This document shows, piece by piece, positions 27,511 through 53,979 of a DNA stretch of 64,000 nucleotides (position 1 is the stretch's first letter; every line of letters starts with the position of its first letter). Made by a program: the position numbers and the translations under genes. Source of the stretch: an uncultured Patescibacteria group bacterium (lineage in GTDB: Bacteria > Patescibacteriota > Microgenomatia > UBA1400 > PJMF01); NCBI GenBank assembly GCA_905478415.1, contig CAJQIG010000002.1:186699-250698 (forward strand), given 5' to 3'. The notes beneath the pieces were generated by a model that had not been told where the DNA came from, did no database searches, and worked only from the letters and a program-made list of their open reading frames with translations.

Positions 27511-27623
27511 AGCGTGATCCTTTACTACATGTTTTTATTCTTTATCTTAACATAATTTAGAACCTAATTTATTGGGGATAAGTTAACAAAAAAAGAACTA
27601 TAAATAGCTCTAATTCAAAACTG

Positions 27624-27694
27624 CAGGGCCAGAGGGAATCGAACCCCCGTCAAAGGTTTTGGAGACCTCTATTCTACCGCTGAACTATGGCCCT
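27624..27694 (-). tRNA. tRNA-Trp (anticodon CCA)
   Basis: 71 nt cloverleaf with acceptor AGGGCCA/TGGCCCT, anticodon loop CTCCAAA, T-arm GGGGGTTCGATTCCCTC and discriminator G. An extended -10 TGATACAAT lies upstream on the minus strand. Confidence 0.9.
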
Positions 27695-27807
27695 ACGTTG
27701 AGTTGTTAACGTTCAAATTGTATCATTAAGTGCTAGGTTTGCGGAGTAGAGGATTCGATTTTTTAGGCCTGTATCTTGAGAAATTTGCGGATGTTTGGTT
27801 AGCAACA

Positions 27808-37221: not shown

Positions 37222-38298
37222 TTGTACTATCGGGTTTTTTTGATGTATTCTAGCGGCATGAGTAGAGTTGCACAGTTACTATCAACTTTTTCGGGATTTT
37301 CTAAAAACCAACCGTTGTTATTCGATTGCGGATCGACAGTGACGCGAGTGTTTTTTGAGGGCAAGTTGTTAGCCGAAGAGCCAACCTGTATTGCAGTTCA
37401 TGCTGAGTCGGGCTCGACAGTTGCTGTGGGGGCGAAGGCTGTTTCGCTGCTGGGTAAAGTATCAGACAAGTTTCAGGTTGAGTTTCCAATAGCGCACGGT
37501 GAAATTAGCAGTCCGTCTTTACTGCAAAAATTTTTAGAAGTAGTAGTTTCAAAATTTGATACCACTGTGTTTTCAAAAGTAATGGGCTTTCCAGTTGTCC
37601 TAGTGGTGCCAAGCGAACTGTCTCCTGTCCAAAAAACTATTTTTGAAGAGACGTTTAAAAAGGCTGGATTTCGCTCAGTAGTGCTCATTCCCCAAGCTGA
37701 GACATTACTTGAGAAACTAGGTGCGGGTGGAGAACATGAAAGTTTCTGTTACCTTGATTTTGGTGGGCAGAAAAGTGAGTTCGGTATTTTTACTCTCAAC
37801 GAAAAAATTAAAAGTATGACCGTTAGAACCGGTGGTGTTCAGCTGACAGAAATTATTCAGGAGCACATACGCTTAGTGCATAATCTGGAAGTTAGTTGGC
37901 ATGTGGCGGAGCAAGTCAAACGGGAAGCCTGTAGCTTTGTGGGCTTGGTCCCTGGAGGAGGCAGAGTAGCTGCTACTAAAGTAGCAATTAGGGGAAAGGA
38001 TGTGGTGACGCAGGCGGGAAAAACAGTCACGGTTTCATCAGCTGATTTTCTAGAATCATTTGGATTTGTCGTCGAAGAGTTGATTGACGCGCTTCAGTTC
38101 TTTTTTGCAAGTGTTCCGGCTCACTTAGTGGCTTCTTCACTTGAAGATGGCATTTTTATGACGGGAGGAATGAGTCAGATGACCGGTCTGAAAGAGCTGC
38201 TTGAACATACTTTTTCAAGTCCAGTGTACGTACATAAGCATCCAGATTTAGATAGTATTGAGGGACTACATCTTCGAGTAAGTAAGCATGAAATATAA
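37222..38298 (+). CDS. mreB: Divergent actin-like ATPase, MreB-like (rod-shape protein)
   Basis: LLFDCGSTVTRVFF...EEPTCIAVH...VAVGAKAVSLLGK follows the MreB N-terminal pattern. It lies directly upstream of mreC-mreD-PBP2. The real start is possibly the Met at 37258. Confidence 0.55.
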   Translation: MYYRVFLMYSSGMSRVAQLLSTFSGFSKNQPLLFDCGSTVTRVFFEGKLLAEEPTCIAVHAESGSTVAVGAKAVSLLGKVSDKFQVEFPIAHGEISSPSLLQKFLEVVVSKFDTTVFSKVMGFPVVLVVPSELSPVQKTIFEETFKKAGFRSVVLIPQAETLLEKLGAGGEHESFCYLDFGGQKSEFGIFTLNEKIKSMTVRTGGVQLTEIIQEHIRLVHNLEVSWHVAEQVKREACSFVGLVPGGGRVAATKVAIRGKDVVTQAGKTVTVSSADFLESFGFVVEELIDALQFFFASVPAHLVASSLEDGIFMTGGMSQMTGLKELLEHTFSSPVYVHKHPDLDSIEGLHLRVSKHEI

Positions 38299-39079
38299 GA
38301 TACTCAGACCAAAAGAAGAACTGTGGGGACACAGAGTCCTGATGGCAGTGATGGTGGTTGGGGCGATGGTTCTCATTTCTATTAGTGGTTGGTATACACC
38401 AATTCAGAATACTTTACTGACAGCCAGTGCTCCCTTTTTGCGAGTGACTTCACGAGTGGTGTCAGTAGCTCTGTTACCGGTTAAGGGTGTATTTTCTGGA
38501 GCAAATTCCCAAGATAAAATCAGACAACTATCTGCAGAGGCTAGTATTTTGCAGGCTCGTATCGCAGAGTTAGAATACGTTGAAAAAGAAAATGAGGCAT
38601 TGAAGAATATTCTTGAAAATTCAGATAGAACTCTCGATGAGATGTATATTGCTTCTCCGATCTTATCACTCTCATATCCAGCAATTGGGGTAGGGGAACG
38701 AGAAGGAGTGTTACCTCAACAAGCGGTGGTGTTATCTGGAACATTAATAGGCACAATTTCCGAGGTGTACCCAACTCAGTCGAAAGTCAGTTTACTCTCA
38801 AGTCAAACGGCATCACCACTGTTAGTGAGGACGGAGACCGGTATTGAAGGAATAATTATTGGAGACGGAAAGAACGTGATTATGCGCCACATCCCCAGAG
38901 AAATTCAGGTTAAAGAGGGGGAGCGTGTTTTTACTATTGGTCAAGAAGGTATTAGAAAAAATATGTTTGTAGGTCGAGTTTCGCAGGTTGTGGCTGAGCC
39001 AAGTTCTCCAACTCAGGAGGCCACTATTTCTCAATACGTTTCATTTTATGATGCGGTACTTGTGGAGGTTTGGCAATGA
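38288..39079 (+). CDS. mreC: Rod shape-determining protein MreC
   Basis: N-terminal TM helix, coiled coil (LQARIAELEYVEKENEALKN) and beta-rich C-terminus. Overlaps the mreB stop. Confidence 0.6.
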   Translation: MKYKILRPKEELWGHRVLMAVMVVGAMVLISISGWYTPIQNTLLTASAPFLRVTSRVVSVALLPVKGVFSGANSQDKIRQLSAEASILQARIAELEYVEKENEALKNILENSDRTLDEMYIASPILSLSYPAIGVGEREGVLPQQAVVLSGTLIGTISEVYPTQSKVSLLSSQTASPLLVRTETGIEGIIIGDGKNVIMRHIPREIQVKEGERVFTIGQEGIRKNMFVGRVSQVVAEPSSPTQEATISQYVSFYDAVLVEVWQ

Positions 39080-39561
39080 GGACTGCTTGGCCAAAATCAC
39101 TACTATTAATTATACTTTTGTTTCTGTCTCTCTCTTTTGAGAGAGTCATTGGTGTGCCTCTTATTTCGTTGATAGTATTTTATCATCTTTTTTTTACCGC
39201 CCGTACTTCAGTCCAGGGGATATCGCTGCTTCTTTTTTCATTGTTGGTTGCCGCTCTCTATACTACAGATCCTGTTTTGACAGCCATTTTGATGGTTGGT
39301 TTTTTCCTTGTACTTAAAAGCATTTCGGGCACAATGGGGTCATTACTGAGTTGGCAACTCCTAGCACTTTCTTGTGTTCAAGCAGTGGTTTTGGGGTATT
39401 TGGCCCACTTGGAGATCACGTTCATATCCCTCTTTGCCGGAGTATTACAATTTTTAGTTTCAGTCTTTTTTATTAGGAAAGTGATGTTTAAGGATATTCA
39501 ACAATCATTTACCTGGAAGCAGAAGATTTTTTCTTCTAAAGTGTATGAGAAAACCGTATAA
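39070..39561 (+). CDS. mreD: Rod shape-determining protein MreD-like polytopic membrane protein
   Basis: 163 aa, about 5 TM helices, overlapping mreC and PBP2. Confidence 0.45.
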   Translation: MAMRTAWPKSLLLIILLFLSLSFERVIGVPLISLIVFYHLFFTARTSVQGISLLLFSLLVAALYTTDPVLTAILMVGFFLVLKSISGTMGSLLSWQLLALSCVQAVVLGYLAHLEITFISLFAGVLQFLVSVFFIRKVMFKDIQQSFTWKQKIFSSKVYEKTV

Positions 39562-41482
39562 TCACACGTATACTCGGCAGATAGCTTTTGTAATTGTAGT
39601 GGTGGGGACTATTTTCGCACTTCTTTTCTTACGATTACTTGATCTACAAGTTGTGCGTGGAGCATTTTTTCGAGCTAAGGCTGATGGAAACAGATTTTAT
39701 ACACGGTACGTACCAGCCGAGCGTGGCGTTTTCTTTGACAGGTTTGGTGAACCACTTGTAGTTAATGTTCCGAAATACTATCTCCTCGAGGATAGAGATT
39801 CCCTGTACAGTCCAAGAAAAGCAATTTCTCACCAAGAAGCTCTAGAAGAAATGAGTAGAAACAGTGATACTGTTGATTTTGAAATTGAACGACACTATCT
39901 TTTCCCAGAATCAACCTCACACATCATGGGATATGTGGGTTCGGTGACAGCTGAAGATTTGGCAAAAAACTCGTCTCTTCCAAGAAATGCCCAGATTGGC
40001 AAGATGGGGCTTGAGAATGTTTTTGACGAAGTAATTCGAGGTACAAGTGGTTCAGTTACGTACGAAATTAATGCGCTTGGGAAAAAACAGCGTACTGTTG
40101 TCACTCAACCAGGATCTCCAGGAGAGAGTATAGAAACATCTTTAGATCCATATCTGTCCGAAGTGGCATTTCGAGCTCTGGGTGATCAAAGGGGAGCAGT
40201 AGTAATCTTGGATGCAGATACAGGTCGAGTACTTTCGTTAGTGAGCGCCCCAACATTTAATTCTTCTGTAATGAGCCGAACTGCTATCGATATTTCTTTG
40301 GAGCGAGCACGCCGTAAGCAAGTGCAGGAATACTTTAGTAATCCTCTACAGCTCTTTTTTAATCGTACGACGGCAGGCGCCTATCCGCCTGGTTCTGTGT
40401 TTAAACTGATCACTGCACTTTCGGGTCTGGAGAAAGGTGTTCTTACTAAAGATACAACTGTTATTGATGAGGGAACACTAGATCTGGGTGAATATAGTTA
40501 TGCCAACTGGTACTTCACTCAATATGGTCGAGTTGAGGGAGAGATTAATCTGGTTCGGTCTATTGCTCGGAGTAATGACATCTTCTTTTATAAAGCTGCT
40601 GAGGCGATTGGTCCGACTCAGTTGGCCGAGGATGCTCACTTATTTGGTTTAGGTGAAAAGACAGGTATTGAACTTCCTGGTGAGGTTACAGGTTTAGTGC
40701 CTACCCCAGAGTGGAAAGAACAAGTAGTTGGTGAAAAATGGTACACAGGTAATACCTTCCACATGGGTATTGGACAGGGGGATGTGTTAGTTTCTCCGAT
40801 TCAACTAGCTGCAGCTATCCAGACTATAGCGAAACGGGGGGCTCACTGCCTTCCTCGAATAACGAGCAGTACTGCTCAAAATACGCAACGCTGTGCCGAG
40901 TTGGGGATTCAAGAAGATCATTTACAGATAGTTGTTGAAGGGATGCTCGATGCTTGTTCTGAAGGAGGCACGGCCTATCCTTTCTTTGCACATAATAAGG
41001 AAGCCCGCAAACCAGAACTAGATCCCTATGCCCAGGTTAAAAGTGGAGGAGTGGCCTGCAAAACGGGAACCTCAGAGTTTGGGGGTGTCGATGAAGAAGG
41101 CTACAGAAATACTCACGCCTGGTTTTCATTGTTTTTTTCTTTGAATCCAGAGATGAAAGCTCGGGCTGAAGCAGTTGAAAGCAAAGATACAATAGTTGAG
41201 GCGGTCGCAACTGGTTCGGGTGAACTTGTGAGTGATGTCCAACAGCCATTCGATACAACTCTGACTCTAAAAAAGAGTGCCGAAGAGTATTCACTTGAGG
41301 AACTCTATCAGCTTTGGAGTCAAAAGATGCTGACAGGGTATCCTAAAAATATAGTGATGGTTGTGCTGATTGAAAGTGACGAAGCAAATCAGTTTAAAGA
41401 GGGGTCTCGAGATGCAGCCCCCGTGGCCAAGAGTGTTTTTGACTGGATGTTAGGAGAAATACCAACGACGGTTACTCCGTAA
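39545..41482 (+). CDS. mrdA: Penicillin-binding protein 2 (peptidoglycan D,D-transpeptidase)
   Basis: N-terminal TM anchor, SxxK (GSVFKL), SxN and KTG (CKTGTSE) transpeptidase motifs. Confidence 0.85.
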   Translation: MRKPYNHTYTRQIAFVIVVVGTIFALLFLRLLDLQVVRGAFFRAKADGNRFYTRYVPAERGVFFDRFGEPLVVNVPKYYLLEDRDSLYSPRKAISHQEALEEMSRNSDTVDFEIERHYLFPESTSHIMGYVGSVTAEDLAKNSSLPRNAQIGKMGLENVFDEVIRGTSGSVTYEINALGKKQRTVVTQPGSPGESIETSLDPYLSEVAFRALGDQRGAVVILDADTGRVLSLVSAPTFNSSVMSRTAIDISLERARRKQVQEYFSNPLQLFFNRTTAGAYPPGSVFKLITALSGLEKGVLTKDTTVIDEGTLDLGEYSYANWYFTQYGRVEGEINLVRSIARSNDIFFYKAAEAIGPTQLAEDAHLFGLGEKTGIELPGEVTGLVPTPEWKEQVVGEKWYTGNTFHMGIGQGDVLVSPIQLAAAIQTIAKRGAHCLPRITSSTAQNTQRCAELGIQEDHLQIVVEGMLDACSEGGTAYPFFAHNKEARKPELDPYAQVKSGGVACKTGTSEFGGVDEEGYRNTHAWFSLFFSLNPEMKARAEAVESKDTIVEAVATGSGELVSDVQQPFDTTLTLKKSAEEYSLEELYQLWSQKMLTGYPKNIVMVVLIESDEANQFKEGSRDAAPVAKSVFDWMLGEIPTTVTP

Positions 41483-41516
41483 TCTCTTTGTCAGAAAGAC
41501 AGAGTACTCTGTCAGT

Positions 41517-42641
41517 ATGGATTTTGTTTCTCTAGATTTCCTTTCTTTGCTTGATCAAAAAATCTTGGTTTTCTTTCTTTTAGCTCAAAAGGGGATTGGC
41601 CGACAGCGGGCACGGGCTATTTTATTAGAACTTTCAAAAACACAGATAAAACCCAAAGAGATTCGGAAGTATTTACAACCCCTTTTAATAAAATATAAGT
41701 GTAAAAATATATTTGATAAATCAATTTCATGGAATGAAATAGAGAACTTTTATTACTCAAACAGTGAGGCGTTTTTAGCAAGAGGTGTTTCGGTTGTCTA
41801 TTATAGAGAAAAAGCATTTCCTCATTCATTGCGGTCAATTGCTGACTCACCACTGCTCCTTTTCTATAAAGGTTCTGGTGGATTGTTCTCCCAAAGAGGG
41901 GTGGCTATGGTTGGGACACGAAAGATTACTCCCTATGGGAAACTCGTCACAAAAAAAATCACAGCCGAAGTCGTTGCAGATGGATTTGTGACCATTTCTG
42001 GTTGTATGTATGGTGTTGACGAGCTTGTTCATCGAGAGACGATGAAGTATAGGGGGAAAACGATCGCTGTGCTTGGCTACGGTTTTGATTATTTTTATCC
42101 ATCACAGGCTCAAGCTCTTCAAGAGGCTATTATTGCTGCGGGTGGCACGGTAGTCACAGAATATTTCCCTTGGATAGAGCCTCGGCCAGGTTTCTTTTTA
42201 GATAGGAATCGTTTGATTGCTGGCCTCAGTCAAGCAACTATTGTCCTTGAAGCAGCTGAAAAATCGGGAAGTCATAGAACTGCCGTATCAGCTGCCGAGA
42301 ATGGTCGTCAAGTTTTTGCAGTTCCTGGTCCCATTACTAATCCCTACTCTGAAGGTACTAAATGGCTCATAAATCAGGGGGCACTGTTGATTACCTCAGG
42401 GTTTGAGGTGGCGCAACACTTGGGCGTAGCCTCCTCACCAGTGAGGAGCAGCAACAAAAACCTTTTTGTCGAGGGAGATGCAACCAATTCAGTGATCCAG
42501 GTTTTACAGTCTGGGCCAAGTACGGTAGAGGATCTGGCTTGTAAAACCAGTTTGTCGTTACGCGAAGTATTGCGGACGCTCGGATATATGGAGTTAGATG
42601 GTACACTTGCCAAAGATGGTATACTCTGGTATCTGAAGTAA
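41517..42641 (+). CDS. dprA: DNA processing protein DprA
   Basis: Rossmann-like DprA core (GVAMVGTRKITPYG ... GSHRTA), 374 aa. Confidence 0.75.
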   Translation: MDFVSLDFLSLLDQKILVFFLLAQKGIGRQRARAILLELSKTQIKPKEIRKYLQPLLIKYKCKNIFDKSISWNEIENFYYSNSEAFLARGVSVVYYREKAFPHSLRSIADSPLLLFYKGSGGLFSQRGVAMVGTRKITPYGKLVTKKITAEVVADGFVTISGCMYGVDELVHRETMKYRGKTIAVLGYGFDYFYPSQAQALQEAIIAAGGTVVTEYFPWIEPRPGFFLDRNRLIAGLSQATIVLEAAEKSGSHRTAVSAAENGRQVFAVPGPITNPYSEGTKWLINQGALLITSGFEVAQHLGVASSPVRSSNKNLFVEGDATNSVIQVLQSGPSTVEDLACKTSLSLREVLRTLGYMELDGTLAKDGILWYLK

Positions 42642-45546: not shown

Positions 45547-46434
45547 ATGTCAAAACCACATACCCGCACTCCCGATACTCAATACCGAGAATTACTCGCT
45601 GAAATTTTAGAACATGGCGTCCGCACTCCTTCGCAGCAAGGGGTTGATGCTTTAACCTTGATTGGGCCAAAGCCACTCCATTTTAAGTTGAAAAATGGTT
45701 TTCCAATTATCACCGAACGAAAAATTAGTAAAAAAATTTGGAGCCAGGCTATTGGTGAGATTATTGGATTTATTAATGGGGCTCGTACCCAAGAAGAACT
45801 AGCAGAGTATGGTTGTAAGTGGTGGCATGCTTGGGTGACCGAAGCCAAATGTCATAAACGGGGTCTTGAAACTGGTGATATGGGTCCTGGAAGCTATGGC
45901 GCAGCTTTTCACGATTTTCCTACTGCCGAAGGGCCCACATTCAATCAATTTCAGAACATCATCGAGCAAATAAAAGAGAAACCCCAGCTTCGTACTCATT
46001 TCATTTCTCCCTGGATTCCTCAATACACTATTCGAGGGAAGGGAAAGCAACAAAAAGTCGTTGTTTGTCCGTGCCACGGTTGGATTCACATCAGAATTAT
46101 TGATGGAAAACTAACACTTCACATGTTCCAACGCAGTAGTGATACCCCGGTGGGGCTCCCTGCAAATTTGGCCCAGTATGCAGCGCTCACCATGATGATT
46201 GCTCAAGCTACCGGTTATGAAGCCTATGAGTATGTACACAGCTTTAGCGATGCTCATATTTATGTAGATCAACTTGATCATGTTAAAGAATTGTTAAAAC
46301 GAGAGCCAAAATCGCTTCCTGTTATGAAGATGAACCCCGACAAAAAAGACTTGTTTGAGTTTAGAGTCGAAGATTTTAAGTTAACCGAATATGACTACCA
46401 CCCAGGAATGTGGGACATTCCAGTAGCTATTTAG
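45547..46434 (+). CDS. thyA: Thymidylate synthase (ThyA type)
   Basis: Active-site region VVVCPCHGW and overall ThyA layout, 295 aa. Confidence 0.88.
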   Translation: MSKPHTRTPDTQYRELLAEILEHGVRTPSQQGVDALTLIGPKPLHFKLKNGFPIITERKISKKIWSQAIGEIIGFINGARTQEELAEYGCKWWHAWVTEAKCHKRGLETGDMGPGSYGAAFHDFPTAEGPTFNQFQNIIEQIKEKPQLRTHFISPWIPQYTIRGKGKQQKVVVCPCHGWIHIRIIDGKLTLHMFQRSSDTPVGLPANLAQYAALTMMIAQATGYEAYEYVHSFSDAHIYVDQLDHVKELLKREPKSLPVMKMNPDKKDLFEFRVEDFKLTEYDYHPGMWDIPVAI

Positions 46435-46446
46435 GAAAGTATCCAT

Positions 46447-46905
46447 ATGGTAGATAAACCTGTTGTAGATCTAGATAATTATAGAGAGCCAGAGCAACTT
46501 GAGGTTATGCAGCAAATCCAAAAGGATGGAGTTTGTCCGTTCTGCATGGATGAATTTACAAAACACCAAACTGAAGAGACATTATTCGATGGTAAGTACT
46601 GGCTTTTAACGTATAACCGCTGGCCCTATAAAAACACTAAAGTCCATTTATTGGCAATTTATAAAGAACACGCTGAGCATATTTTAGAAGTTGAGCCGGC
46701 CGCAGGGGCAGAGTTAATTGAGGTATTCCAGTGGGCTTCCACACACTTTACTGTGCCAGGTGGTGGTTTTGTAATGCGATTTGGAGATACTAATTATTCG
46801 GCGGGGAGTGTGCAACATTTGCATGCCCAGTTTATACAGCCTGATATTGATGCTGCTACTTACGAGCCGGTGCGGGTGAAGTTGGGGAAGAGTAGGAAAG
46901 AGTAA
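46447..46905 (+). CDS. HIT-superfamily protein (GalT/Ap4A-phosphorylase branch, HxHxQ)
   Basis: N-terminal CPFC zinc motif and C-terminal VQHLHAQFI (H-x-H-x-Q). Confidence 0.5.
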   Translation: MVDKPVVDLDNYREPEQLEVMQQIQKDGVCPFCMDEFTKHQTEETLFDGKYWLLTYNRWPYKNTKVHLLAIYKEHAEHILEVEPAAGAELIEVFQWASTHFTVPGGGFVMRFGDTNYSAGSVQHLHAQFIQPDIDAATYEPVRVKLGKSRKE

Positions 46906-47051
46906 CTACTTTGTTTTAATCCTATATTTTTTTAAAGTATGCTATATACTATAATTTAGCGAGTACTTGCGCATTTTTTGTGCGGGTATGTAGCTGTTTT
47001 TTAACAATACTTTAACCGCATGTTTTTCAAAAAAACGAGGAGGTTTTTTTT

Positions 47052-47513
47052 ATGAACGTGACCGTCAATTGGTGGAGATCATTAATTTTTGTAGCACTGA
47101 TGATGATGACAACTCTACTCTGTGTTCAAGGTGCGGAGTTTACAATTCACAGGACAATTCCTGCGAATTCATACAAGCAGTTAAATCGGGGTTATGTGTA
47201 TACCACAGAGTCTGGTGAACCTGTTTCGATGGAGTTATATTCGGACTCAGAGTTTGTGATTGAGTGTGATGGAGAAATACCGGCTGACAACCCTAATGGG
47301 CTTGAAGGTATTCCTCAGACTTCATACTTTAATTTCAAACAAACAGTGACTTGTGAGAGGTTCATTGTGTTGATTGGCTACCCATATCTCAACGCTCCAG
47401 GAATTGTTCAAGGGAATGATATTGTTCCCTTCAATAATATTTTTGGGATGATTATCTTGGGTTTGGTACTGATGGCTCTTTGGTTCTGTCTCTGTTTTGT
47501 TTGGAAGAGGTAA
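47052..47513 (+). CDS. Membrane protein, hypothetical
   Basis: N- and C-terminal TM helices, 153 aa. Confidence 0.4.
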   Translation: MNVTVNWWRSLIFVALMMMTTLLCVQGAEFTIHRTIPANSYKQLNRGYVYTTESGEPVSMELYSDSEFVIECDGEIPADNPNGLEGIPQTSYFNFKQTVTCERFIVLIGYPYLNAPGIVQGNDIVPFNNIFGMIILGLVLMALWFCLCFVWKR

Positions 47514-47575
47514 CGCACTAAAGTTGGTGTAGAAGATATTGTTATATAGCAGCCCGGTTTATTCGGGCTGCTTTT

Positions 47576-48394
47576 TTATCCTAAATGCGCAAGTACCACT
47601 CCAGCTTGTTGTAATATAGTTTCCCCATCGAGCATGCTATAGCCCTCAGAAAAATACAGTTTTGAGATACCACTACATGCAATCAATTTTGCGCACACAG
47701 GGCAAGGAAAAGTGGTGACATACAGTTCGGCGCCATCGAGCGACAGTCCTTTTTTAGCCGCATCTGCAATCAGGGCAGCTTCGGCATGAATAGCGGTAGA
47801 AAGATCGATGTGTTCACCTTTGTGGAATGAATTGCGAGGGTCACTGTCAATGTATGGCGTGTAGGGAGAGGGCAAATGATGGTTGTGAGTTACCGAAATA
47901 ATCTCTCCCTTTTGAACCAGAGCGCAGCCAACTTGGCGCCACCAATCACTACTATGCTCAGCCACTTCAAATGTTGCTGCAGTTATGGAATCTGGTTCAT
48001 GTTGAGTTAGAGTGTTATCTCGATTCCACCGTAAAAATGTTTGGTTATATGTTATTTGCGCTTTTGAAAGTTTTTTTTCTGCCAGCCATAGGAAGATATC
48101 TTCATCTGGAAGTATGAGTTGTTGATTTTCAATAGCTAGTTGTTGGAGTTTTTTGGGATCTAAGAGAGAGATGTTTTTCTTGGGGAAGATTGCTCTGAGG
48201 CTTGTTAGGGCATTTTCTGGAGAGAGGGCTCTAATTTCTTTTCGCAAGTAATCAAAGTGGGTATCAATAAGTGCAATCATTTTTTCATCTAAGATATACA
48301 CAGTTGTTTCGTCAGTCAGTTGGGATACGAAGTCAAGATATCCTTTATGGAGAACGGGAAGGTAGAGAAGTGCTGCTGTTTTTGGAGTTGGCAT
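47576..48394 (-). CDS. dCMP/cytidine deaminase-domain protein with ~150 aa N-terminal extension
   Basis: C-terminal HAEAALIADAAKKG ... TTFPCPVCAKLI (HAE...PCxxC zinc site). N-terminal domain unassigned. Confidence 0.75.
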   Translation of the reverse strand: MPTPKTAALLYLPVLHKGYLDFVSQLTDETTVYILDEKMIALIDTHFDYLRKEIRALSPENALTSLRAIFPKKNISLLDPKKLQQLAIENQQLILPDEDIFLWLAEKKLSKAQITYNQTFLRWNRDNTLTQHEPDSITAATFEVAEHSSDWWRQVGCALVQKGEIISVTHNHHLPSPYTPYIDSDPRNSFHKGEHIDLSTAIHAEAALIADAAKKGLSLDGAELYVTTFPCPVCAKLIACSGISKLYFSEGYSMLDGETILQQAGVVLAHLG

Positions 48395-48954
48395 TAGTGA
48401 TGACTTTTAAGTTCTTCAAGTATTTCTTCCATGGCTGAAATAACTTTGTGAGATAATGTTTTACTAATTTTTTTAGCCATTCCAAGTTGGACAAGGCGTA
48501 GTTTGGCACTGGTTGAAGTGGTCGCCATAGGATCAAGCACAACTACTTCACCACAGATTTTTTTGAGTTTAGTCAGTTGCACTTTAGAATAAGTTTCTTT
48601 AGTGGTGATTAACACATTCGGTGAGATGAGACGAATCAGTTCCCATTTGGGTTCTGTTAGGTTTTTAATAACTGCATGATCAACGGCGGTAATGTAGGTA
48701 ACCATTTCGAGTCGTTCAGTTTCTGGGACAATGGGTCGATCTGGACCCTTTCGCTTCTTAATTTTTTCATCCGAATCAATCCCCACAAACAGGACATCAC
48801 CATAGGTTTTGGCAGTAGTCAGGTAGCGACCGTGTCCAATATGAAGCATATCAAAGGAGCCTTGTGTAAGGATAATTTTTTTACCTGCCTTGCGGTAGTG
48901 CTCGGCTAGTTGGGCAATATCGGAGTAATCGTTGACCATTTTTTCTTCGTTCAT
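48394..48954 (-). CDS. Cytidylyl/adenylyltransferase (HldE domain II / TagD-like)
   Basis: ILTQGSFDMLHIGHGRYL ... VGIDSDEKIKKRKGPDRPI matches the (H/T)xGH nucleotidyltransferase fold of ADP-heptose synthase domain II. Confidence 0.7.
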   Translation of the reverse strand: MNEEKMVNDYSDIAQLAEHYRKAGKKIILTQGSFDMLHIGHGRYLTTAKTYGDVLFVGIDSDEKIKKRKGPDRPIVPETERLEMVTYITAVDHAVIKNLTEPKWELIRLISPNVLITTKETYSKVQLTKLKKICGEVVVLDPMATTSTSAKLRLVQLGMAKKISKTLSHKVISAMEEILEELKSHH

Positions 48955-49013
48955 AGTACGTATCGTAGCATGCCGAAATCGTTTTGTCAGAGAATCTGTG
49001 GTAGAGTACTGGT

Positions 49014-49523
49014 ATGAAAGTTACCTTAATCGCAGCTGTCACCATTGATGGTTTTATTGCTCGGGATGATGTCCATTTATCTACTCGTTGGACTAGTAAA
49101 GAAGACACTCGTTTTTTTAGAAGGTTGTCTGCTAAAGTCGGCCATATGGTAGTTGGTTCAAAAACCTTTAAAACATTTGATAGAAAAATGGCTGGGCGAA
49201 AGATCTATGTGTACTCGCACAAACAAACAGTCGAAAATAGTTCTGAAAACGATATTGAGGTAGTGTCTGCCTCCCCCAAAAAATTTATTACAGACCTTGA
49301 ATCTAGGGGCGTTGCGGAAGTGCTGATCTGTGGTGGATCATCAATATATACTCTTTTTATGAAGGCAGGGGTTGTTGACCGGTTGTTGCTGACTCAAGAG
49401 TCTACTATTTTTGGAGCCGGTGTCCCGTTGTTTTCGGAGCCACTCAAGACAAAGGTCAGTTTAGATATTATTCACAACTTATCAGACCAAACAAAAGTTT
49501 TTGAGTATGAGGTGATGAAATGA
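49014..49523 (+). CDS. Dihydrofolate-reductase-family (RibD C-terminal domain) protein
   Basis: MKVTLIAAVTIDGFIARDD ... ICGGSSIY pattern of DHFR/RibD_C. Confidence 0.7.
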   Translation: MKVTLIAAVTIDGFIARDDVHLSTRWTSKEDTRFFRRLSAKVGHMVVGSKTFKTFDRKMAGRKIYVYSHKQTVENSSENDIEVVSASPKKFITDLESRGVAEVLICGGSSIYTLFMKAGVVDRLLLTQESTIFGAGVPLFSEPLKTKVSLDIIHNLSDQTKVFEYEVMK

Positions 49524-49960
49524 AAACATTAACCGTTACGTTTAAGCGTTTTGATACCTCTTTGCCAATTCCAGAATATAAAACTTCTGGAGCTGCAGCT
49601 TTTGATTTATATGCTCGTGAGGAAACAACGATCGCGGCTGGAAAAATTGGCTACATTCCACTCAATATTGCTTTACAGTTGCCCGAAGAGTACTGGGCAT
49701 TGGTATCGGCACGGAGTTCACTGCATAAACGCGGGCTACTTTTAGCCAATGGTATTGGTGTGGGAGACTATGACTTTAGAGGGCCGAACGATGAATATAA
49801 GGCTCCAGTTCTTAATTTTTCTGATGTTGAAGTGACTATCGAAAAGGGTGAGCGGGTAGTGCAGATGATTATTATGCATCGTCACCCAGTTTCTCTTGTC
49901 GAGCTGAAAGAATTTGAGGGTCAAAATCGTGGGGGATTTGGTACCACTGGTCGTAAATAA
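49520..49960 (+). CDS. dut: dUTP diphosphatase
   Basis: Trimeric dUTPase motifs (SGAAAFDLYA, GVGDYDFRGP), overlapping the DHFR-like gene by 4 bp. Confidence 0.85.
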   Translation: MKTLTVTFKRFDTSLPIPEYKTSGAAAFDLYAREETTIAAGKIGYIPLNIALQLPEEYWALVSARSSLHKRGLLLANGIGVGDYDFRGPNDEYKAPVLNFSDVEVTIEKGERVVQMIIMHRHPVSLVELKEFEGQNRGGFGTTGRK

Positions 49961-50103
49961 GTAGGTTACATATCCATTCTGTACATTTTTTGTTCAATAC
50001 TGCTCAATGTGCCCATACGGCTTCTTTTCATTTTGGGAGAGACACGAAATGTGGTAATTTAGAGCTTGCACACCCACTACATCTTGTGGTTTTATTGTAA
50101 GGT

Positions 50104-51114
50104 ATGTCTGCCGCAATTACGAAAGAAATCCGCCACACTTATTCACTTTCTGAGTCAGAATCTCTTTGGAAAAATGAGAAACCAGACCTGATTGTTTTCT
50201 CTTCTTCGAGTGTCCGCAAGGCACTCATTTTTTCTTGGGCACTGCATGATTTTTCTTTTGATCATGTTGATCAAATGGGTCTGACGATCAAAGGGCCAGG
50301 GTTAAAAGGTCTTACAACTCCAGCTGAGATTCAAGAGTATTTCAATACTTATATCTATAATGGTGATATGGCCCTTCGGCAACAAGTTTGCCTAGGTGAA
50401 TTCGAAGGGGTCCCCGTTTGGGCGTACCCTCAAACAACTGAATCAGATAAAAATGATGATCCCATAGCCGAGGCTCGTAACAAAGCAACTGCTTTTGCAG
50501 ATCAATTTGCTGGTCGAAATGTTTTTTTTATTGCCAGTGATGTGGTGGGCACATCTTCTAACTTTATTGATGAAGTAGGTACACAAATTAAAATGGGCAA
50601 GCCAATAAACTTTAGATCCAGTTTAGAGGTAGAAGCTGCAGAACAGGGATCTCAGACACCGTTATGGGAATCTCCCGAAGCCTTCATTGCTTGGTATAAG
50701 GAGGTTGTGTTTGAAGTTAACTCTACTTTAGGACACATTTCTGGAGTAGTCGTACTTGATGCAGCAGAACACCAACTGTATGCCACCGAAGTTGAACTGT
50801 ACCATCAGCTTTCAGCCGAACTACACCAACACTTAGAAGTGTTATCCGATGCGGGTTTAGGCGGTGCTTGGCAGCAGATACAAGCGTATTTACAAGATTC
50901 TTTAACCTTGCTGGGAGATGCTGTTGTAGACATTATCCCAACTCACGCTGATCCAGACGAAGAAACTACAGAACAGCTAGTCTTTGCTCATATGATTGGG
51001 GTTCAAGTTCTGGCATTTTTAGAACTTTTAGTGGGCGTACAGCGAGATGAAGTAGCGGTGCTCTCGGCAAAGAAACCAGTACAAAATCTTATTTTTGATG
51101 GGGAGAGTCGCTAA
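50104..51114 (+). CDS. Hypothetical protein (nucleotide-metabolism neighbourhood)
   Basis: 336 aa, no recognised motif. Its stop overlaps the start of the next gene (TAATG). Confidence 0.45.
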   Translation: MSAAITKEIRHTYSLSESESLWKNEKPDLIVFSSSSVRKALIFSWALHDFSFDHVDQMGLTIKGPGLKGLTTPAEIQEYFNTYIYNGDMALRQQVCLGEFEGVPVWAYPQTTESDKNDDPIAEARNKATAFADQFAGRNVFFIASDVVGTSSNFIDEVGTQIKMGKPINFRSSLEVEAAEQGSQTPLWESPEAFIAWYKEVVFEVNSTLGHISGVVVLDAAEHQLYATEVELYHQLSAELHQHLEVLSDAGLGGAWQQIQAYLQDSLTLLGDAVVDIIPTHADPDEETTEQLVFAHMIGVQVLAFLELLVGVQRDEVAVLSAKKPVQNLIFDGESR

Positions 51115-51860
51115 TGTCACATCCATTTATTGAAGCTCGGGAAAAGGTCGATGAAATGCGTCGTCAAGCTAATTTACTCGAGGCTGTTGATCAGTTTGCA
51201 GCTCCCGAATTTTTACTTTCAATGGCAGTTACCGAGTTGCACGAGTATGCTCAGGAACAAGAAAAATATGGAACTCCAAACTACGATGTAGTAGCTACCA
51301 ATGGTGAGTTTGATGATATTGCTGTTTTCTTTTTTTCTTGGATCCAAACGTATGCCGCTAACGTCGATATGTTGCAAACAATTCATTCTGCTAATGGCTA
51401 TGGCAGTCATTCTGCAGCATTAGAGCAGTTGGGCCCCGTTATTCAAGATGCCGCAGATGATCTGCGAGCAGTTCCAGAAGTTATTACTCGGTTAGCTTCG
51501 ATTGGTATGCACATGCCAGTTCCGTATGTAGCTTTTGAAGGTATGGACAGGACAGTGAATAAAGTGCTTTCAAACCGTCCACCAGCGTTATATTCAGTCT
51601 TTTGCCCTAGTAAAGGTAGAGAATTGAAGGATGAGGAGTTAGTACGCAAGTACCAGCATTTGGAGAAGGGGACGCGCATGATTCGTAACAAGGTGGGGCG
51701 AACCTTGCAACCTGCAGATTGGCAGCCATACTATCAACAGTTGGTTGGTTGGACTCAGTCAGAAACGAACTTAACAGTACTCCAGCATCAACTGGCTCAA
51801 GGGATGCCGGTTACGCCAGTTCAATTAGAGAATGCTAAAACAAAGCTGTATACTAGCTAA
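51114..51860 (+). CDS. Hypothetical protein, possible MazG-like all-alpha NTP pyrophosphohydrolase
   Basis: ELHEY (ExxE) ... EFDDIA (ExxD) with MazG-like spacing. Weak. Confidence 0.35.
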   Translation: MSHPFIEAREKVDEMRRQANLLEAVDQFAAPEFLLSMAVTELHEYAQEQEKYGTPNYDVVATNGEFDDIAVFFFSWIQTYAANVDMLQTIHSANGYGSHSAALEQLGPVIQDAADDLRAVPEVITRLASIGMHMPVPYVAFEGMDRTVNKVLSNRPPALYSVFCPSKGRELKDEELVRKYQHLEKGTRMIRNKVGRTLQPADWQPYYQQLVGWTQSETNLTVLQHQLAQGMPVTPVQLENAKTKLYTS

Positions 51861-51902
51861 AAGTAAATAAAAATCAATAGAGTTGTGTAACGGAGGGAAC
51901 GT

Positions 51903-52544
51903 ATGAACGAGTCTACAAATAAAGGCTTTTTGCTTACGCTTGAAGGTGGTGAGGGTGGTGGAAAGACCACACAGATAGTGCGCCTCAAAGATCGCTTATT
52001 CAAAGAGGGTAAAGATGTGGTGGTGCTTCGTGAGCCGGGTGGAACGGTTATCAGTGAGCAAATTCGAGATGTAGTGTTATCTTCAAAAAATATTGGTATT
52101 GCCTTTACAGCAGAGGTACTTTTATTTCAGGCTGCTCGGGCACAAATTTATCGAGAAATTGTTTTGCCCTCACTTGAAGCTGGCAAGATAGTCATTATGG
52201 ATCGCTCGCGCGACAGCTCTGTAGTCTATCAAGGCATGGTCCGAGGTTTCGGGAAAGATATGATTGAAAAACTCAACGACCTCTCAACGAGAGATACTTA
52301 TCCAGATGCAACATTTTTACTTGATTTACCAGCTGAAATCGGATTACAAAGAAGACAGGAATCTGGCAAGCTTGATCGTTTAGATATGGAAGGAAATGAG
52401 TTTCATTTCAAAATTCGAAAAGCATATCTTGAGCTTGCCGAAAGCGATACTACTGGTCGATGGCAGGTGATTGATGCTTCAAAGTCTCTCGAAGAAGTTG
52501 AGGCTGCTTTGTGGAAAAAAACAAAACAAGTATTGGGTTTATAA
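51903..52544 (+). CDS. tmk: Thymidylate kinase
   Basis: P-loop LEGGEGGGKTT, DRxxxS and LID region. Confidence 0.9.
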   Translation: MNESTNKGFLLTLEGGEGGGKTTQIVRLKDRLFKEGKDVVVLREPGGTVISEQIRDVVLSSKNIGIAFTAEVLLFQAARAQIYREIVLPSLEAGKIVIMDRSRDSSVVYQGMVRGFGKDMIEKLNDLSTRDTYPDATFLLDLPAEIGLQRRQESGKLDRLDMEGNEFHFKIRKAYLELAESDTTGRWQVIDASKSLEEVEAALWKKTKQVLGL

Positions 52545-52584: not shown

Positions 52585-53979
52585 ATGGTAGAAAAAAATT
52601 CACACGTTGCTAGCTTAGAAGAAGATGCACCTTCTGTAGAAGAAGAGTATGCGTCTTTTTCATTTTTGGCAACTACTTCACCAGATCAAACGTTTCGAGT
52701 AGCTCAAGAGCATCTAGAAGAAATTTTTGGAGATTTAACTGATAAAAAAGGTCGCAATCTATTGGAACACTATGGTGAAGCCGAGTGTTTATCTGTTTTG
52801 GCTCGGGTAGAGTATATTGCTCAAGAATTGCAAGCTGCGCTAGTTGACTCAGATATTTTAGAAAGTGAGTCAATTAGGAGCGCTGTTTCTGACAAAGTAG
52901 TCGAAAAAGTTCGTCGGTTTTTAATTGATCTTACGCCTTTGGGAAGTACTGCTCCAGATGCTGTTTGGTCTGAGTATGCTCCACAAGTTCGGGAACATGA
53001 TACGGAACGTGCGAAGAAATATGGATATGAGAGTGGGGGTGTCTACCTGAATCCCGAATGGGATCAGCTTGATCGTGCTTCTGAAAAAAGTAAGAACCAA
53101 CCAGAAACTCGGCAAGAAATTAATTTTTATCAGCGTTTGTTAACGCACGTGATGATGACTACTATTTTTGTTGAGAAGTTGGGAACTCAAATCAATGCGG
53201 TTCTAGAGCTAGCAAATCGTGATGGAACTGCCTTGGATGAAGGTGCGTTTGGTTACCTGAAAGAGAAGAATGGCCAGTATCGCACCATTGATCTTAATCG
53301 GATGAAGGTGCGAATGTTAGTGCACGATATTGGTCGTTGGGCGACGCATCACCCGGTTCTGCACGAAACGCTACCTGACTTACTAGCACATTATTTAGGA
53401 GTGACACCGCCCCTAATTCAATATGAATTCAATCATCAAGAGCGGTATTTCTCAGGAACAGTAGATACGGTGAATCCTCAAAACATACCGATTGAAGAAT
53501 CTCTGTTTCACTTTATTGATTTTATTGCGAAGCGTGATGATGAAAGCGATCTTGAGTCGGTAAAAGTTCGTCGCTTAGACCAATTGGCAGAACATGCTAT
53601 TGCTCGAGCCTCTGGATACAATGGTAAGCTTAAGGAATTTTGGGAGGCACAGCTGCGAATGCGGTTAGAGGGGGGCACGTTATCTCTTGAAGATTTAATT
53701 CGGAAAGCCTTGGAAATACTGAGTGATTCACATGACCCGGGTCAGGCAGAGTTCTATAAGATGGAGCTGCAGTTTCTGCAAAATATTTTGCCTTTTTTAG
53801 GAACACAAAAAGAACCAGGTTTATTTCAAACAGTCGGAACTTCTCTTGAGGAACAGATTGCGTTTGGAGAGCAGGAATTTGAACAACAGATCGATTCGGG
53901 TGAATTGCTTGGATATCAAGATATTCCGGTCAGTAGCGTAGTTGCTACTTCTATTACCACTGCTTTAACTGGAAAGTAA
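52585..53979 (+). CDS. HD-domain protein, hypothetical
   Basis: LVHDIGRW HD motif in a 464 aa protein. Confidence 0.4.
   Translation: MVEKNSHVASLEEDAPSVEEEYASFSFLATTSPDQTFRVAQEHLEEIFGDLTDKKGRNLLEHYGEAECLSVLARVEYIAQELQAALVDSDILESESIRSAVSDKVVEKVRRFLIDLTPLGSTAPDAVWSEYAPQVREHDTERAKKYGYESGGVYLNPEWDQLDRASEKSKNQPETRQEINFYQRLLTHVMMTTIFVEKLGTQINAVLELANRDGTALDEGAFGYLKEKNGQYRTIDLNRMKVRMLVHDIGRWATHHPVLHETLPDLLAHYLGVTPPLIQYEFNHQERYFSGTVDTVNPQNIPIEESLFHFIDFIAKRDDESDLESVKVRRLDQLAEHAIARASGYNGKLKEFWEAQLRMRLEGGTLSLEDLIRKALEILSDSHDPGQAEFYKMELQFLQNILPFLGTQKEPGLFQTVGTSLEEQIAFGEQEFEQQIDSGELLGYQDIPVSSVVATSITTALTGK

Follow-up and report, generated by a model that had tools for sequence, protein, structure and literature searches.

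A conserved pyrimidine deoxynucleotide supply and sanitation island in a Patescibacteria genome

The window, a 64,000 nucleotide stretch of DNA from an uncultured bacterium, contains a conserved pyrimidine-dNTP supply and sanitation island that includes divergent variants of known enzyme kinds. The host, which has a tiny genome, belongs to the Patescibacteria (CPR) and is of Pacebacteria type; the region is core chromosome. Nearly all thymine-nucleotide genes of the host were concentrated in a single 7 kb block; random placement of 5 named pathway genes within 11 consecutive genes of a ∼650-gene genome has P ∼1e-7. We consider it reasonably probable that the block is a vertically inherited Patescibacteria island that makes and polices thymidine nucleotides, is built from two conserved modules and carries a pair of pyrophosphatases (MafL and MazGL). 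All ten genes claimed by an earlier sequence-only reading of this DNA were located as open reading frames at the positions given there. The features are as follows.

45547-52544, 7 kb: thymidylate gene block, 10 open reading frames
45547..46434, + strand: thyA, thymidylate synthase (PF00303, 3.4e-66), heading the thyA-HIT pair
46447..46905, + strand: HIT-superfamily-like protein with H-x-H-x-Q and an N-terminal CPFC, 12 nt after thyA
47052..47513, + strand: small protein whose N and C termini carry hydrophobic segments
47548..47572, no strand assigned: GC-rich, terminator-like hairpin with a 10 bp stem (consensus scan only)
47576-48394, − strand: fusion of an N-terminal domain and a dCMP-deaminase domain, 272 aa
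47576..47974, − strand: dCMP-deaminase domain of the fusion, residues ∼141-272 (PF00383, 8.7e-16, residues 143-249)
47975..48394, − strand: N-terminal domain of the fusion, ∼140 aa
48394..48954, − strand: CTPt, cytidylyltransferase-like (HIGH-type) nucleotidyltransferase (PF01467, 2.9e-17)
49014..49523, + strand: DHFR/RibD_C-family reductase (PF01872, 2e-17; PF00186, 5.5e-13)
49520..49960, + strand: dut, trimeric-type dUTPase (PF00692, 5.6e-21)
50104..51114, + strand: MafL, 336 aa, divergent insertion-bearing Maf-like (YhdE-type) putative pyrimidine NTP pyrophosphatase
51114..51860, + strand: MazGL, 248 aa, all-alpha NTP-pyrophosphohydrolase-like protein (MazG/dimeric dUTPase superfamily)
51903..52544, + strand: tmk, thymidylate kinase (PF02223, 3.7e-43)
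52585..53979, + strand: 464 aa protein with VHDIGR, a possible HD-type motif

ThyA passed the thymidylate-synthase equivalog cutoff of TIGR03284 (193.6 bits, cutoff 108.35) and its translation contains the PCH and RSxD active-site motifs. Tmk scored 164.1 bits with TIGR00041 (cutoff 83.25) and dut 93.5 bits with TIGR00576, below the cutoff of 102.55. The DHFR/RibD_C reductase reached no NCBIfam equivalog cutoff; its gene overlaps dut by 4 nt and lies upstream of dut in related loci L010, L012, L041, L051 and L052. These canonical genes do encode the route previously read from them, from dCMP through dUMP and dTMP to dTDP, together with removal of dUTP and recycling of folate. The 464 aa protein downstream of tmk gave no significant family match, its L006 orthologue matching PF01966 (HD) at E = 0.079, and was confined to close relatives of the window's lineage, being absent in L051 and L052.

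Module A consists of CTPt followed by the N-domain dCMP deaminase, is convergent with the thyA-HIT pair and is conserved. It was recovered in 31 diverse metagenome loci with GC contents of 36 to 60% and varying flanks, and was intact in L022, L023, L033, L037 and L045, where module B (below) is located elsewhere. CTPt was immediately upstream of the deaminase in 30 of the 31 loci, and in 21 of the 24 cases where the gap was measured it lay between −8 and +6 nt; in the window the CTPt stop overlaps the deaminase start. The best NCBIfam model for CTPt was TIGR02199 rfaE_dom_II, at 99.9 bits against a cutoff of 181.5. In the deaminase domain the HAE and PCxxC motifs were invariant, and the best PDB matches were dCMP deaminases (4p9c, 2e-13; T4 1vq2, 3e-12). 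The N-terminal domain was kept in all 31 loci and carries the motifs Y-x-P-V-x-H-x-G-Y, (F-D-Y-L-)R-K-E-I-R-A-L, P-x-E-D and F-L-R-W-D/N. Pfam and PDB searches with a 20-sequence profile of this domain returned zero matches; hhalign paired its HxGY with the HxGH of CTPt at a non-significant E of 0.038.

The HIT-like gene directly followed thyA in 14 metagenome loci. Its product matched no Pfam or NCBIfam model above threshold. Sub-threshold matches to Pfam HIT were obtained with 4 of 5 orthologues (best E 0.0037), to DcpS_C with 3 of 5, and to DUF4931_N; 10 of 18 weak PDB matches were HIT proteins (E 0.03-0.8). H124-x-H126-x-Q128 and C30-P-F-C33 were invariant. Support for the HIT-superfamily call is weak but convergent. 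The closest known proteins are the GalT/Apa-branch HIT nucleotidyl transferases and phosphorylases, which it resembles in the replacement of the third His of the triad by Gln and in its N-terminal CxxC; GalT has a duplicated architecture, whereas the HIT-like protein is a single 150 aa domain. ThyA was its constant partner here, and we know of no previous association of thyA with HIT proteins. The small hydrophobic protein that follows matched no family in Pfam, NCBIfam, PHROGs or PADLOC. A homologue was present in L004 and L018 and absent in the other loci examined; it is a lineage-specific insertion outside the pathway. The hairpin separates the convergent units, thyA-HIT-small hydrophobic protein and CTPt-deaminase.

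Module B (DHFR, dut, MafL, MazGL, tmk) is likewise conserved. The proposed coupling of the 50104 and 51114 genes was borne out: MafL and MazGL share one base (TAATG), with a Shine-Dalgarno-like run, GGGGAGAG, upstream. In relatives the gap was −17 to +3 nt, and two metagenomic proteins are natural fusions in opposite orders, MazGL-MafL (P0081) and MafL-MazGL (P0048). Given the gene overlap and the fusions, MafL and MazGL are functionally linked. Among MafL relatives at 21-27% identity, tmk was the next or next-but-one gene wherever downstream sequence exists, and dut was commonly upstream of MafL. The slot between MafL and tmk held TK, a dNK-like kinase, MazGL or nothing; in L017 and L043 MazGL alone occupied it.

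The island was flanked by topA/nadD on one side and recR/hpf/cysS on the other in every relative. Because gene order was kept well beyond close relatives, the grouping put forward by the sequence-only reading is retained. The homologues all come from one phylum-level radiation, and shared descent may therefore explain part of the conserved order. The non-canonical genes, above all CTPt, the HIT-like gene and the deaminase N-domain, could serve unrelated housekeeping, for example sugar-nucleotide or cofactor synthesis, and be placed here only by inherited order in a slowly rearranging lineage. Every locus was from a Patescibacteria-like small genome, synteny (dprA-topA ... recR-hpf-cysS) extends far past the pathway genes, and CTPt resembles HldE domain II, a sugar-1-phosphate adenylyltransferase. 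We nevertheless regard this as unlikely: module A stays a unit where its flanks have changed and module B is elsewhere, the CTPt-deaminase start/stop overlaps are kept in 21 of 24 loci, and the same pair occurs on a 63% GC viral contig. The two MafL/MazGL fusion proteins, and the position of MafL beside tmk at such low identity, also count against it.

A second alternative, which appears less likely still, is that the fusion deaminase acts on dCTP in the manner of AvcD, yielding dUTP that dut would convert to dUMP, with the N-domain binding the triphosphate and MafL/MazGL purely sanitising rather than supplying dCMP. The fusion is like the AvcD/DCD anti-phage dCTP deaminases in having two domains and a C-terminal dCMP-deaminase-like core as the best NCBIfam/PADLOC match, nearer to this defence family (NCBIfam NF041025, 7.6e-21, at 74.5 bits against a cutoff of 400 and limited to the deaminase core; PADLOC dCTPase, 2.7e-21) than to ComEB (1.3e-12). 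AvcD architecture includes an extra N-terminal domain, and dut was always nearby. However, the best solved structures matched were the dCMP deaminases. The N-domain is unrelated to that of AvcD, is not P-loop kinase-like (no Walker A) and did not match the N-terminal parts of the models; the gene sits with thyA, not in a defence island; and one related locus, L053, has a separate DCD-type dCTP deaminase.

MafL matched no Pfam or NCBIfam model above threshold, and Pfam Maf was the leading recurrent family among its relatives. A 46-sequence MafL family profile was compared using hhalign, giving E-values of 7.3e-5 with YceF, 1.4e-4 with YhdE+YceF and 4e-3 with RdgB, at probabilities for Maf of just 53-63%; 13 unrelated control proteins gave 0.07-0.76, so the profile matches are specific to proteins of the Maf/ITPase fold. 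In a full-length alignment the Maf signature residues of YhdE (S10, R13, K52, D70, K82; PMC3899018) corresponded to MafL S36, K39, K127, D146 and K166, of which S36, K127, D146 and K166 were invariant across the 46 sequences. The subfamily residues R12 and Q153 (PMC3899018) corresponded to R38 and Q257, which, like K39, were invariant or near-invariant. MafL thus shares the catalytic Asp, the triphosphate-binding Lys residues and the R…Q signature of YhdE-subfamily Mafs (E. coli YhdE, B. subtilis Maf/BSU28050; PF02545), and their motif order (β1-Ser-x-Arg/Lys, Lys, Asp-Thr/Val, Gly-Lys-Pro, D-x-G…Q, G-x-P). It differs from Maf in length (300-430 aa in the family, against ∼190 aa), in three large insertions, one of them with invariant Asn86-Gly87, and in having Lys for Arg13. 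The equivalent of Glu33 was ambiguous, and Val takes the place of Thr71 in the window protein. Its neighbours are tmk and dut rather than mreBCD, and its coupled or fused partner is MazG-like, known Maf fusions being with a methyltransferase. The AlphaFold model was poor (pLDDT 56) and the best Foldseek match of this weak model, HAM1/ITPase, was not significant. From its sequence MafL looks like a cryptic, insertion-rich, Maf-like protein.

MazGL matched neither the MazG nor the dUTPase_2 Pfam model and reached no NCBIfam threshold; its family comprised only 14 clusters (90% identity) in 5.8 billion proteins. The AF2 model (pLDDT 79) was a helical bundle whose top PDB matches in Foldseek were dimeric dUTPases (probability up to 0.89), while viral NTP-PPase/dUTPase models were matched at probabilities of 0.99-1.0 and E 0.013-0.3, every E-value for MazGL being at least 0.013. 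Phage NTP-PPases were also among the top structural neighbours. ExxE…ExxD (E41, E44, E48, E65, D68) was invariant in 13 aligned close relatives (55-70% identical). The predicted fold and the motif are shared with MazG, the dimeric dUTPases (Trypanosoma, Campylobacter, phage) and human DCTPP1; MazGL is unlike known all-alpha NTP-PPases in its ∼100 aa C-terminal helical extension and in its Maf-like partner or fusion. Judged on the predicted fold and invariant acidic residues, MazGL looks like an all-alpha NTP-PPase, and the earlier guess of a possible MazG-like protein holds at that level.

Maf can act as an inhibitor of division, and dimeric dUTPases can take part in signalling. By analogy, MafL and/or MazGL might be non-catalytic, possibly regulating tmk, dut or cell division. 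MafL diverges very fast and has large insertions, the base-contacting Gln is apparently missing from both fusion proteins (read by eye, no alignment), and dimeric dUTPases moonlight as derepressors (PDB entries 5myd, 6h4b). We hold this to be very unlikely, since the Maf residues predicted for catalysis (Asp) and for phosphate binding (Lys) are invariant in 46 sequences and the four metal-binding acids of MazGL in its 13 close relatives, the latter seemingly also retained, by eye, in L017, L043 and both fusions.

A phage origin of the cluster, or a role for it in phage defence or DNA modification by depleting nucleotides or making a hypermodified base, is barely credible and already largely refuted: 50,697 phage genomes gave no match, IMG/VR contained no MafL, MazGL or HIT relatives, PHROG and PADLOC searches returned zero matches for these three and the small hydrophobic protein, GC equals that of the flanks, the topA/nadD-recR/hpf/cysS position is fixed in all relatives, ThyA is above its equivalog cutoff, and the NF041025 match of the deaminase is far below its cutoff and confined to the core, the N-domain having no P-loop. 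The phage or nucleotide-modification origin raised previously is therefore unsupported, although phages commonly carry MazG-like and dUTPase-like genes, the deaminase domain scores better with the anti-phage dCTP deaminase models than with ComEB, and the CTPt-deaminase pair occurred once in IMG/VR, on the 63% GC contig, where its neighbours include a Tad3 anti-Thoeris homologue and glycosyltransferases. The dNTP-synthesising set of phage T4 comprises td, frd, cd, gp56 (an all-alpha NTP pyrophosphohydrolase acting as dCTPase) and gp1. Thymidylate synthase, DHFR, dCMP deaminase, an all-alpha dCTPase/dUTPase-like protein and a dNMP/dTMP kinase are classes common to this set and the island. The island is cellular and vertically inherited, lacks a hydroxymethylase, adds Maf-like, HIT-like and cytidylyltransferase-like members, and showed no detected sequence relationship to the phage genes.

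The island is thus best read as one of supply and sanitation; the suggestion of nucleotide-pool sanitising is the best fit, given that MafL, the 336 aa partner, proves to be Maf-like. In the arrangement proposed, the canonical enzymes would take dCMP and dUTP to dUMP, dTMP and dTDP with recycling of folate. MafL and MazGL would be two NTP pyrophosphatases of unrelated folds (YhdE-type Maf and all-alpha MazG/dimeric-dUTPase-like) that work jointly, probably in physical association. They would hydrolyse pyrimidine (d)NTPs to (d)NMPs and PPi. YhdE-type Mafs hydrolyse dTTP, UTP, CTP, m5UTP, m5CTP and pseudo-UTP (PMC3899018), and the abstract of PMC7162842 describes all-alpha DCTPP1 as central to keeping the pyrimidine dNTP pools (dCTP, dTTP, dUTP) in balance. 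The dCMP or dUMP produced may feed the deaminase/ThyA line, as reported for DCTPP1 in human cells, and 5-methyl-(d)CTP, m5UTP, pseudo-UTP and dUTP may be cleared as non-canonical nucleotides. An extra dUTPase would be redundant, as trimeric dut is already present. Organisms of this kind are thought to depend largely on salvage, and a load of non-canonical nucleotides is expected in them. A dTTPase encoded beside tmk would create a futile cycle unless regulated. If the Maf-like and MazG-like reading is true, the two “unknown” genes of the island are very divergent nucleotide-cleaning enzymes.

Open reading frames were listed and scanned against family models. The sequence-only reading had described 45547-52544 as a pyrimidine deoxynucleotide super-cluster with uncharacterised partners, and every gene that it named was found in place:

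45547-46434, plus strand: thyA
46447-46905, plus strand: 152 aa HIT-like protein
47052-47513, plus strand: 153 aa membrane protein, hydrophobic at both ends
47576-48394, minus strand: 272 aa protein with a dCMP/cytidine deaminase domain at residues 143-249
48394-48954, minus strand: CTPt, a 186 aa cytidylyltransferase-like protein
49014-49523, plus strand: DHFR/RibD_C protein
49520-49960, plus strand: dut
50104-51114, plus strand: MafL, 336 aa, without a family match
51114-51860, plus strand: MazGL, 248 aa, without a family match
51903-52544, plus strand: tmk

The thyA product passed TIGR03284 (193.6 against a cutoff of 108), that of tmk passed TIGR00041 (164.1 against 83) and that of dut passed PF00692 (75.1 against 22), the last scoring slightly under the TIGR00576 cutoff (93.5 against 102.55). 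The DHFR/RibD_C protein matched Pfam DHFR_1 at 49.3 (cutoff 25) and RibD_C higher, at 64, and reached no NCBIfam DHFR equivalog cutoff; its DHFR role is taken from its linkage to ThyA. By gene identity a complete enzyme set leading from dCMP or dUTP through dUMP and dTMP to dTDP is encoded with a DHFR-family reductase, as had been proposed. Five named pathway genes within 11 consecutive genes of a ~650-gene genome have a probability under random placement of P ~1e-7.

The window around the cluster is ordinary core chromosome. Its flanks encode ThrRS, MreB, an O-antigen-ligase-like protein, topA, a NadD-like protein, recR, a ribosome hibernation factor and CysRS, with a GC of 0.40-0.45 across cluster and flanks. 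No Rfam elements were found in the cluster, and promoter and terminator scans of it gave no excess over shuffle expectation. At 47548-47572, exactly between the convergent membrane protein and deaminase genes, a strong GC-rich hairpin (10 bp, with T-runs) is plausibly a bidirectional terminator.

Gene order was compared across related loci (L001 and following). Close relatives (55-70% identity) share the order dprA-topA-nadD-thyA-HIT-deaminase-CTPt, continued by DHFR-dut-MafL-MazGL-tmk-X-recR-hpf; since synteny is global in these genomes, this conservation alone says little. More informative are MafL homologues at 21-27% identity: in all those with sequence on the downstream side, tmk follows MafL either directly or after one intervening gene, and dut commonly precedes it. 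The slot that separates dut from tmk was occupied by MafL alone in L009, L012, L013, L041, L051 and L052, by MafL and a thymidine kinase in L010, by MafL and a dNK-like P-loop kinase (Pfam dNK, 3.6e-4) in L011, by MafL and MazGL in the lineage of the window, by a MazGL-MafL fusion in L053, and by MazGL alone in L017 and L043, where a MafL remnant was looked for and none was found. The occurrence of MafL-only, MazGL-only, paired and fused forms in the same slot fits overlapping or cooperative roles. Additions specific to the lineage of the window are the membrane protein, MazGL and a 464 aa protein after tmk, the latter two being absent from L051 and L052. The genes are thus clustered as first read, and the single super-cluster resolves into two adjoining conserved modules plus lineage-specific additions: module A, in which CTPt and the deaminase converge with thyA and HIT, and module B, DHFR-dut-MafL-MazGL-tmk.

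Several features of these neighbourhoods were recorded in passing. The 464 aa protein (52585-53979), seen in the window lineage only, may be an HD phosphohydrolase: it contains the motif VHDIGR, and Pfam HD matches the L006 orthologue weakly (E=0.079); L011 and L053 have YfbR-like HD 5′-deoxynucleotidases near MafL instead. L011:1-17122, from a more distant lineage, holds a nucleotide-metabolism cluster even larger than that of the window, with CTPt, deaminase, HIT, thyA, two YfbR-like HD proteins, DHFR, two phosphoribosyltransferases (one a UPRTase), MafL, the dNK-like kinase, tmk, adenosine deaminase, IMPDH and GMP synthase. At L053:6001-10606 the fusion gene (product P0081) and tmk overlap; two genes beyond comes one resembling DCD-type dCTP deaminase, and the surrounding 6 kb showed no N-domain dCMP deaminase. 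L015 (JACKFX010000006.1, isolate HK-STAS-PATE-16) has the gene content and order of Pacebacteria loci, and its GenBank label ‘Pseudomonadales bacterium’ is probably wrong.

Single-sequence and shallow-profile searches of Pfam, NCBIfam, PHROGs, PADLOC and PDB sequences assigned neither MafL nor MazGL. A word-seeded search with MafL returned only 10 clusters at 53-100% identity, and an exhaustive profile search returned 74 representative clusters at E<=1e-3, mostly of 300-430 aa. The consensus of a 46-sequence alignment runs I-x-x-A-T-x-S-x-R-K-A, N-G-D-G, G-V-P-V, G-E-T-x-x-N-x-x-P-x-x-E-A-x-N-K, D-T-V…L-G-K-P-x-N, H-x-x-G, D-x-G-G-G-G-x-x-Q-Q and I-x-G-x-P, in the motif order of Maf proteins. 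In hhalign the MafL profile matched E. coli YceF at E 7.3e-5 (probability 62%) and YhdE+YceF at E 1.4e-4 (53%), compared with E 4e-3 (8.3%) for RdgB of the same fold superfamily and E 0.07-0.76 (<=0.8%) for 13 unrelated E. coli proteins; relative to these 13 controls the profile-profile match to Maf was significant and family-specific. The link was detected only once the exhaustive representative search had added distant relatives, a 9-sequence alignment giving a non-significant E=0.23. A scan for viral Maf sequences for enriching the Maf profile found none.

The Maf signature comprises YhdE S10, R13, E33, K52, D70 and K82 (PMC3899018). In the full-length hhalign alignment, which runs end to end under a permissive alignment threshold, YhdE S10, R12, R13, K52, D70, K82 and Q153 correspond to MafL S36, R38, K39 (an R to K change), K127, D146, K166 and Q257. 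Each MafL residue in this list is either invariant or >=90% conserved, S36, K127, D146 and K166 being invariant in the 46 sequences and K39 conserved in at least 90% of them. The counterpart of Glu33 is ambiguous, with the near-invariant E113 as candidate. MafL of the window had no Pfam or NCBIfam match; among its 46 relatives Pfam Maf was the sole recurrent family, matching three, all sub-threshold (best 7e-4). An AF2 model of MafL (pLDDT 56 overall, 65-85 over the N-terminal 145 residues) was too poor for fold assignment, and its top Foldseek match, HAM1/ITPase 1vp2, was non-significant (E=0.58). The 336 aa protein first listed as hypothetical is therefore Maf-like by profile-profile comparison and short of the curated Maf model threshold. 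Its motifs and aligned residues make it very likely a YhdE-type Maf that is highly divergent and carries three large insertions (an invariant Asn-Gly lies in one of them), and it probably works like Maf. As it reaches no curated family threshold, it is best called a remote relative, not a catalogued Maf member. No canonical maf was found after the mre genes of the window, unlike E. coli mreBCD-yhdE: at 37222-42641 short genes come after MreB (Pfam 8e-44), PBP2, dprA and then topA were placed next by position in comparison with the L001 annotation, and the sole Maf-like gene seen in the window was MafL, 10 kb downstream.

Homologue searches with MazGL gave 14 clusters, and curated MazG/dUTPase_2 models gave no Pfam, NCBIfam or PHROG match for 13/13 members. 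The AF2 model of MazGL was all-helical (pLDDT 79). Its PDB neighbours in Foldseek were mostly dimeric dUTPases (prob up to 0.89, TM 0.3-0.57, modest E) and its viral neighbours mostly phage models named ‘NTP-PPase-like’, ‘nucleotide pyrophosphohydrolase’ or ‘dUTPase’ (prob 0.99-1.0), with modest structural-match E-values of 0.013-3. An acidic motif ExxE…ExxD is present on the helical bundle. Residues E41, E44, E48, E65 and D68 were invariant in 13 aligned close relatives, the acidic residues were also kept by eye in L017, L043 and the fusions, and E65xxD68 aligned to the ExxD of E. coli MazG in hhalign (E=0.013). On fold matches, invariant acids and this alignment, the guess of a ‘possible MazG-like’ protein holds at superfamily level.

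The MafL and MazGL genes overlap as TAATG with a Shine-Dalgarno-like GGGGAGAG upstream, and their spacing in relatives is -17 to +3 nt. Two fusion proteins were both recovered by the MafL search: P0081 has MazGL at residues 16-230 (1.9e-21) and then MafL at 320-657 (6e-48), and P0048 has MafL at 7-311 (2e-47) and then MazGL at 348-567 (1e-14). With their domains in opposite order, the two proteins imply separate fusion events. Judged from sequence, the pair is a functional unit. It may be regulatory, not catalytic; its two members carry catalytic residues of two different NTP-pyrophosphatase superfamilies, genetically coupled or fused between dut and tmk. Searches of the literature gave no account of Maf-like and MazG-like proteins being paired or fused, and the database name of relatives of both proteins is ‘hypothetical protein’.

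Module A was followed by a metagenome scan seeded on the N-domain, the ~140 aa N-terminal part of the deaminase protein, which returned 31 loci at 28-49% identity with GC from 36 to 60%. CTPt was directly upstream of the N-domain deaminase and co-directional in 30 of the 31; the gap, measured in 24 cases, was -8 to +6 nt in 21. A HIT-like gene was convergent downstream of the deaminase in 21 loci (<=100 nt away in 19 of those), and thyA was upstream of HIT in 14. The 20 kb loci L022, L023, L033, L037 and L045 contain the four-gene module but have none of DHFR, MafL and tmk in its vicinity; L022 and L023 do have dut after thyA. In the interval between thyA and HIT, recorded for L021 and L023, some loci have two tandem HIT-like paralogues downstream of thyA, and others a 470-635 nt gap. 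No description of a CTPt-deaminase-HIT-ThyA module was found in literature searches.

CTPt is a HIGH-type nucleotidyltransferase nearest HldE domain II. It falls below the equivalog cutoff for that domain (TIGR02199, 99.9 against 181.5 bits) and passes the generic cytidylyltransferase models PF01467 (63.5 against 21) and TIGR00125 (51 against 27.7). In the HIT-like protein H124-x-H126-x-Q128 is invariant; Pfam HIT matched 4/5 members, all sub-threshold (best 0.0037), and PDB HIT proteins matched weakly (E 0.03-0.8). The sequence evidence for a HIT identity of the 46447-46905 protein is weak but convergent. Members of the GalT/Apa branch with the HxHxQ variant are transferases and phosphorylases, not hydrolases. 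CTPt and HIT may be bystanders.

The deaminase domain passed PF00383 (58.1 bits against 25), its zinc-binding HAE and PCxxC motifs were invariant and its best PDB matches were dCMP deaminases; the N-domain enzyme may instead act on dCTP. Identification with the anti-phage dCTP deaminase NF041025/AvcD was rejected: the score was 74.5 bits (cutoff 400), the deaminase core alone aligned, and the N-domain has no Walker A motif where NF041025/AvcD is defined by an N-terminal P-loop kinase-like domain. The N-domain carries the motifs YxPVxHxGY, RKEIRAL, PxED and FLRWD. Profiles of 6 and 20 sequences found no match in Pfam or PDB. Comparisons in hhalign with CTPt, NadD, HIT and its own deaminase domain were non-significant; the N-domain HxGY aligned to the CTPt HxGH only at E=0.038, and the best score, 0.003, seems implausible, the alignment being short and out of register. 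With the 145 aa N-domain as query, a word-seeded protein search gave no match, not to the parent protein either, despite the 31 known loci, and negatives of such searches with short domain queries are unreliable.

The resemblance to phage modules suggested at first reading did not hold up: a phage or defence origin of the cluster is not supported. PHROG and PADLOC gave no matches for its uncharacterised proteins, 50,697 phage genomes gave none, IMG/VR contained no MafL, MazGL or HIT relatives, and no compositional (GC) shift was found at the cluster. Cultured phages had the deaminase core only. The sole exception was a CTPt and N-domain-deaminase pair at L050:4468-5828 (IMGVR_UViG_3300037483_001116, 158 kb, GC 63%), a putative phage contig, where the pair adjoins a homologue of the type I Thoeris inhibitor Tad3 (L050:3550-4227, PF25185, 2.5e-27). 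Other neighbours are an Rv2179c-like exonuclease and two GT2 glycosyltransferases; neither HIT nor thyA adjoins the pair. This contig shows that CTPt and the N-domain deaminase travel as a two-gene unit outside Patescibacteria.

Elsewhere in the window, 24100-27700 has a low GC (0.32-0.35 against ~0.42) and abuts tRNA-Trp (27623-27694, minus strand). It contains two tandem pairs of ~85-92 aa genes, resembling by eye a RelE/YafQ-type toxin and antitoxin, and a SAM-methyltransferase-like ORF, and is probably a small integrated islet.

The cluster draws its components from known superfamilies, and its pathway is a textbook one. CPR bacteria (Patescibacteria) are thought to rely heavily on scavenged nucleotides, and in salvage-dependent organisms non-canonical pyrimidine nucleotides would be a plausible burden. 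We infer that MafL and MazGL would hydrolyse pyrimidine (d)NTPs to monophosphates, and the dCMP or dUMP so formed would enter the deaminase/ThyA line. They would also destroy non-canonical pyrimidine nucleotides like those preferred by YhdE-type Mafs, which favour m5UTP, m5CTP, pseudo-UTP and dTTP/UTP (PMC3899018). According to PMC7162842, the all-alpha DCTPP1 is central to balancing the dCTP, dTTP and dUTP pools.

Two more far-reaching readings are, taken jointly, improbable. Module A could be a single undescribed route to dTMP, in which CTPt would take the (d)CMP moiety from (d)CTP and attach it to a phosphorylated carrier, a transferase-type HIT enzyme would release dCMP from the carrier or exchange it, and the deaminase and ThyA would complete dTMP synthesis; overall, nucleotidyl transfer would lead from the triphosphate pool to dTMP. 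The MafL-MazGL pair or fusion could be a new composite enzyme, a two-fold pyrophosphatase gating dNTP/dNMP flux beside tmk.

Patescibacteria account for much of bacterial diversity and have minimal genomes, and to our knowledge the balancing and cleaning of their dNTP pools is largely uncharted. Two conserved ‘hypothetical proteins’ become testable enzymes, a cryptic Maf family with ~74 clusters (50% identity), none of them annotated, and its MazG-like partner, and in the fusions two unrelated pyrophosphatase folds, as predicted, are used together. A recurrent four-gene unit is defined around ThyA, three members of which (the new deaminase domain, the nucleotidyltransferase and the HxHxQ HIT protein) are not known to take part in making thymidylate. 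These proteins provide targets for biochemistry and for better annotation of CPR genomes.
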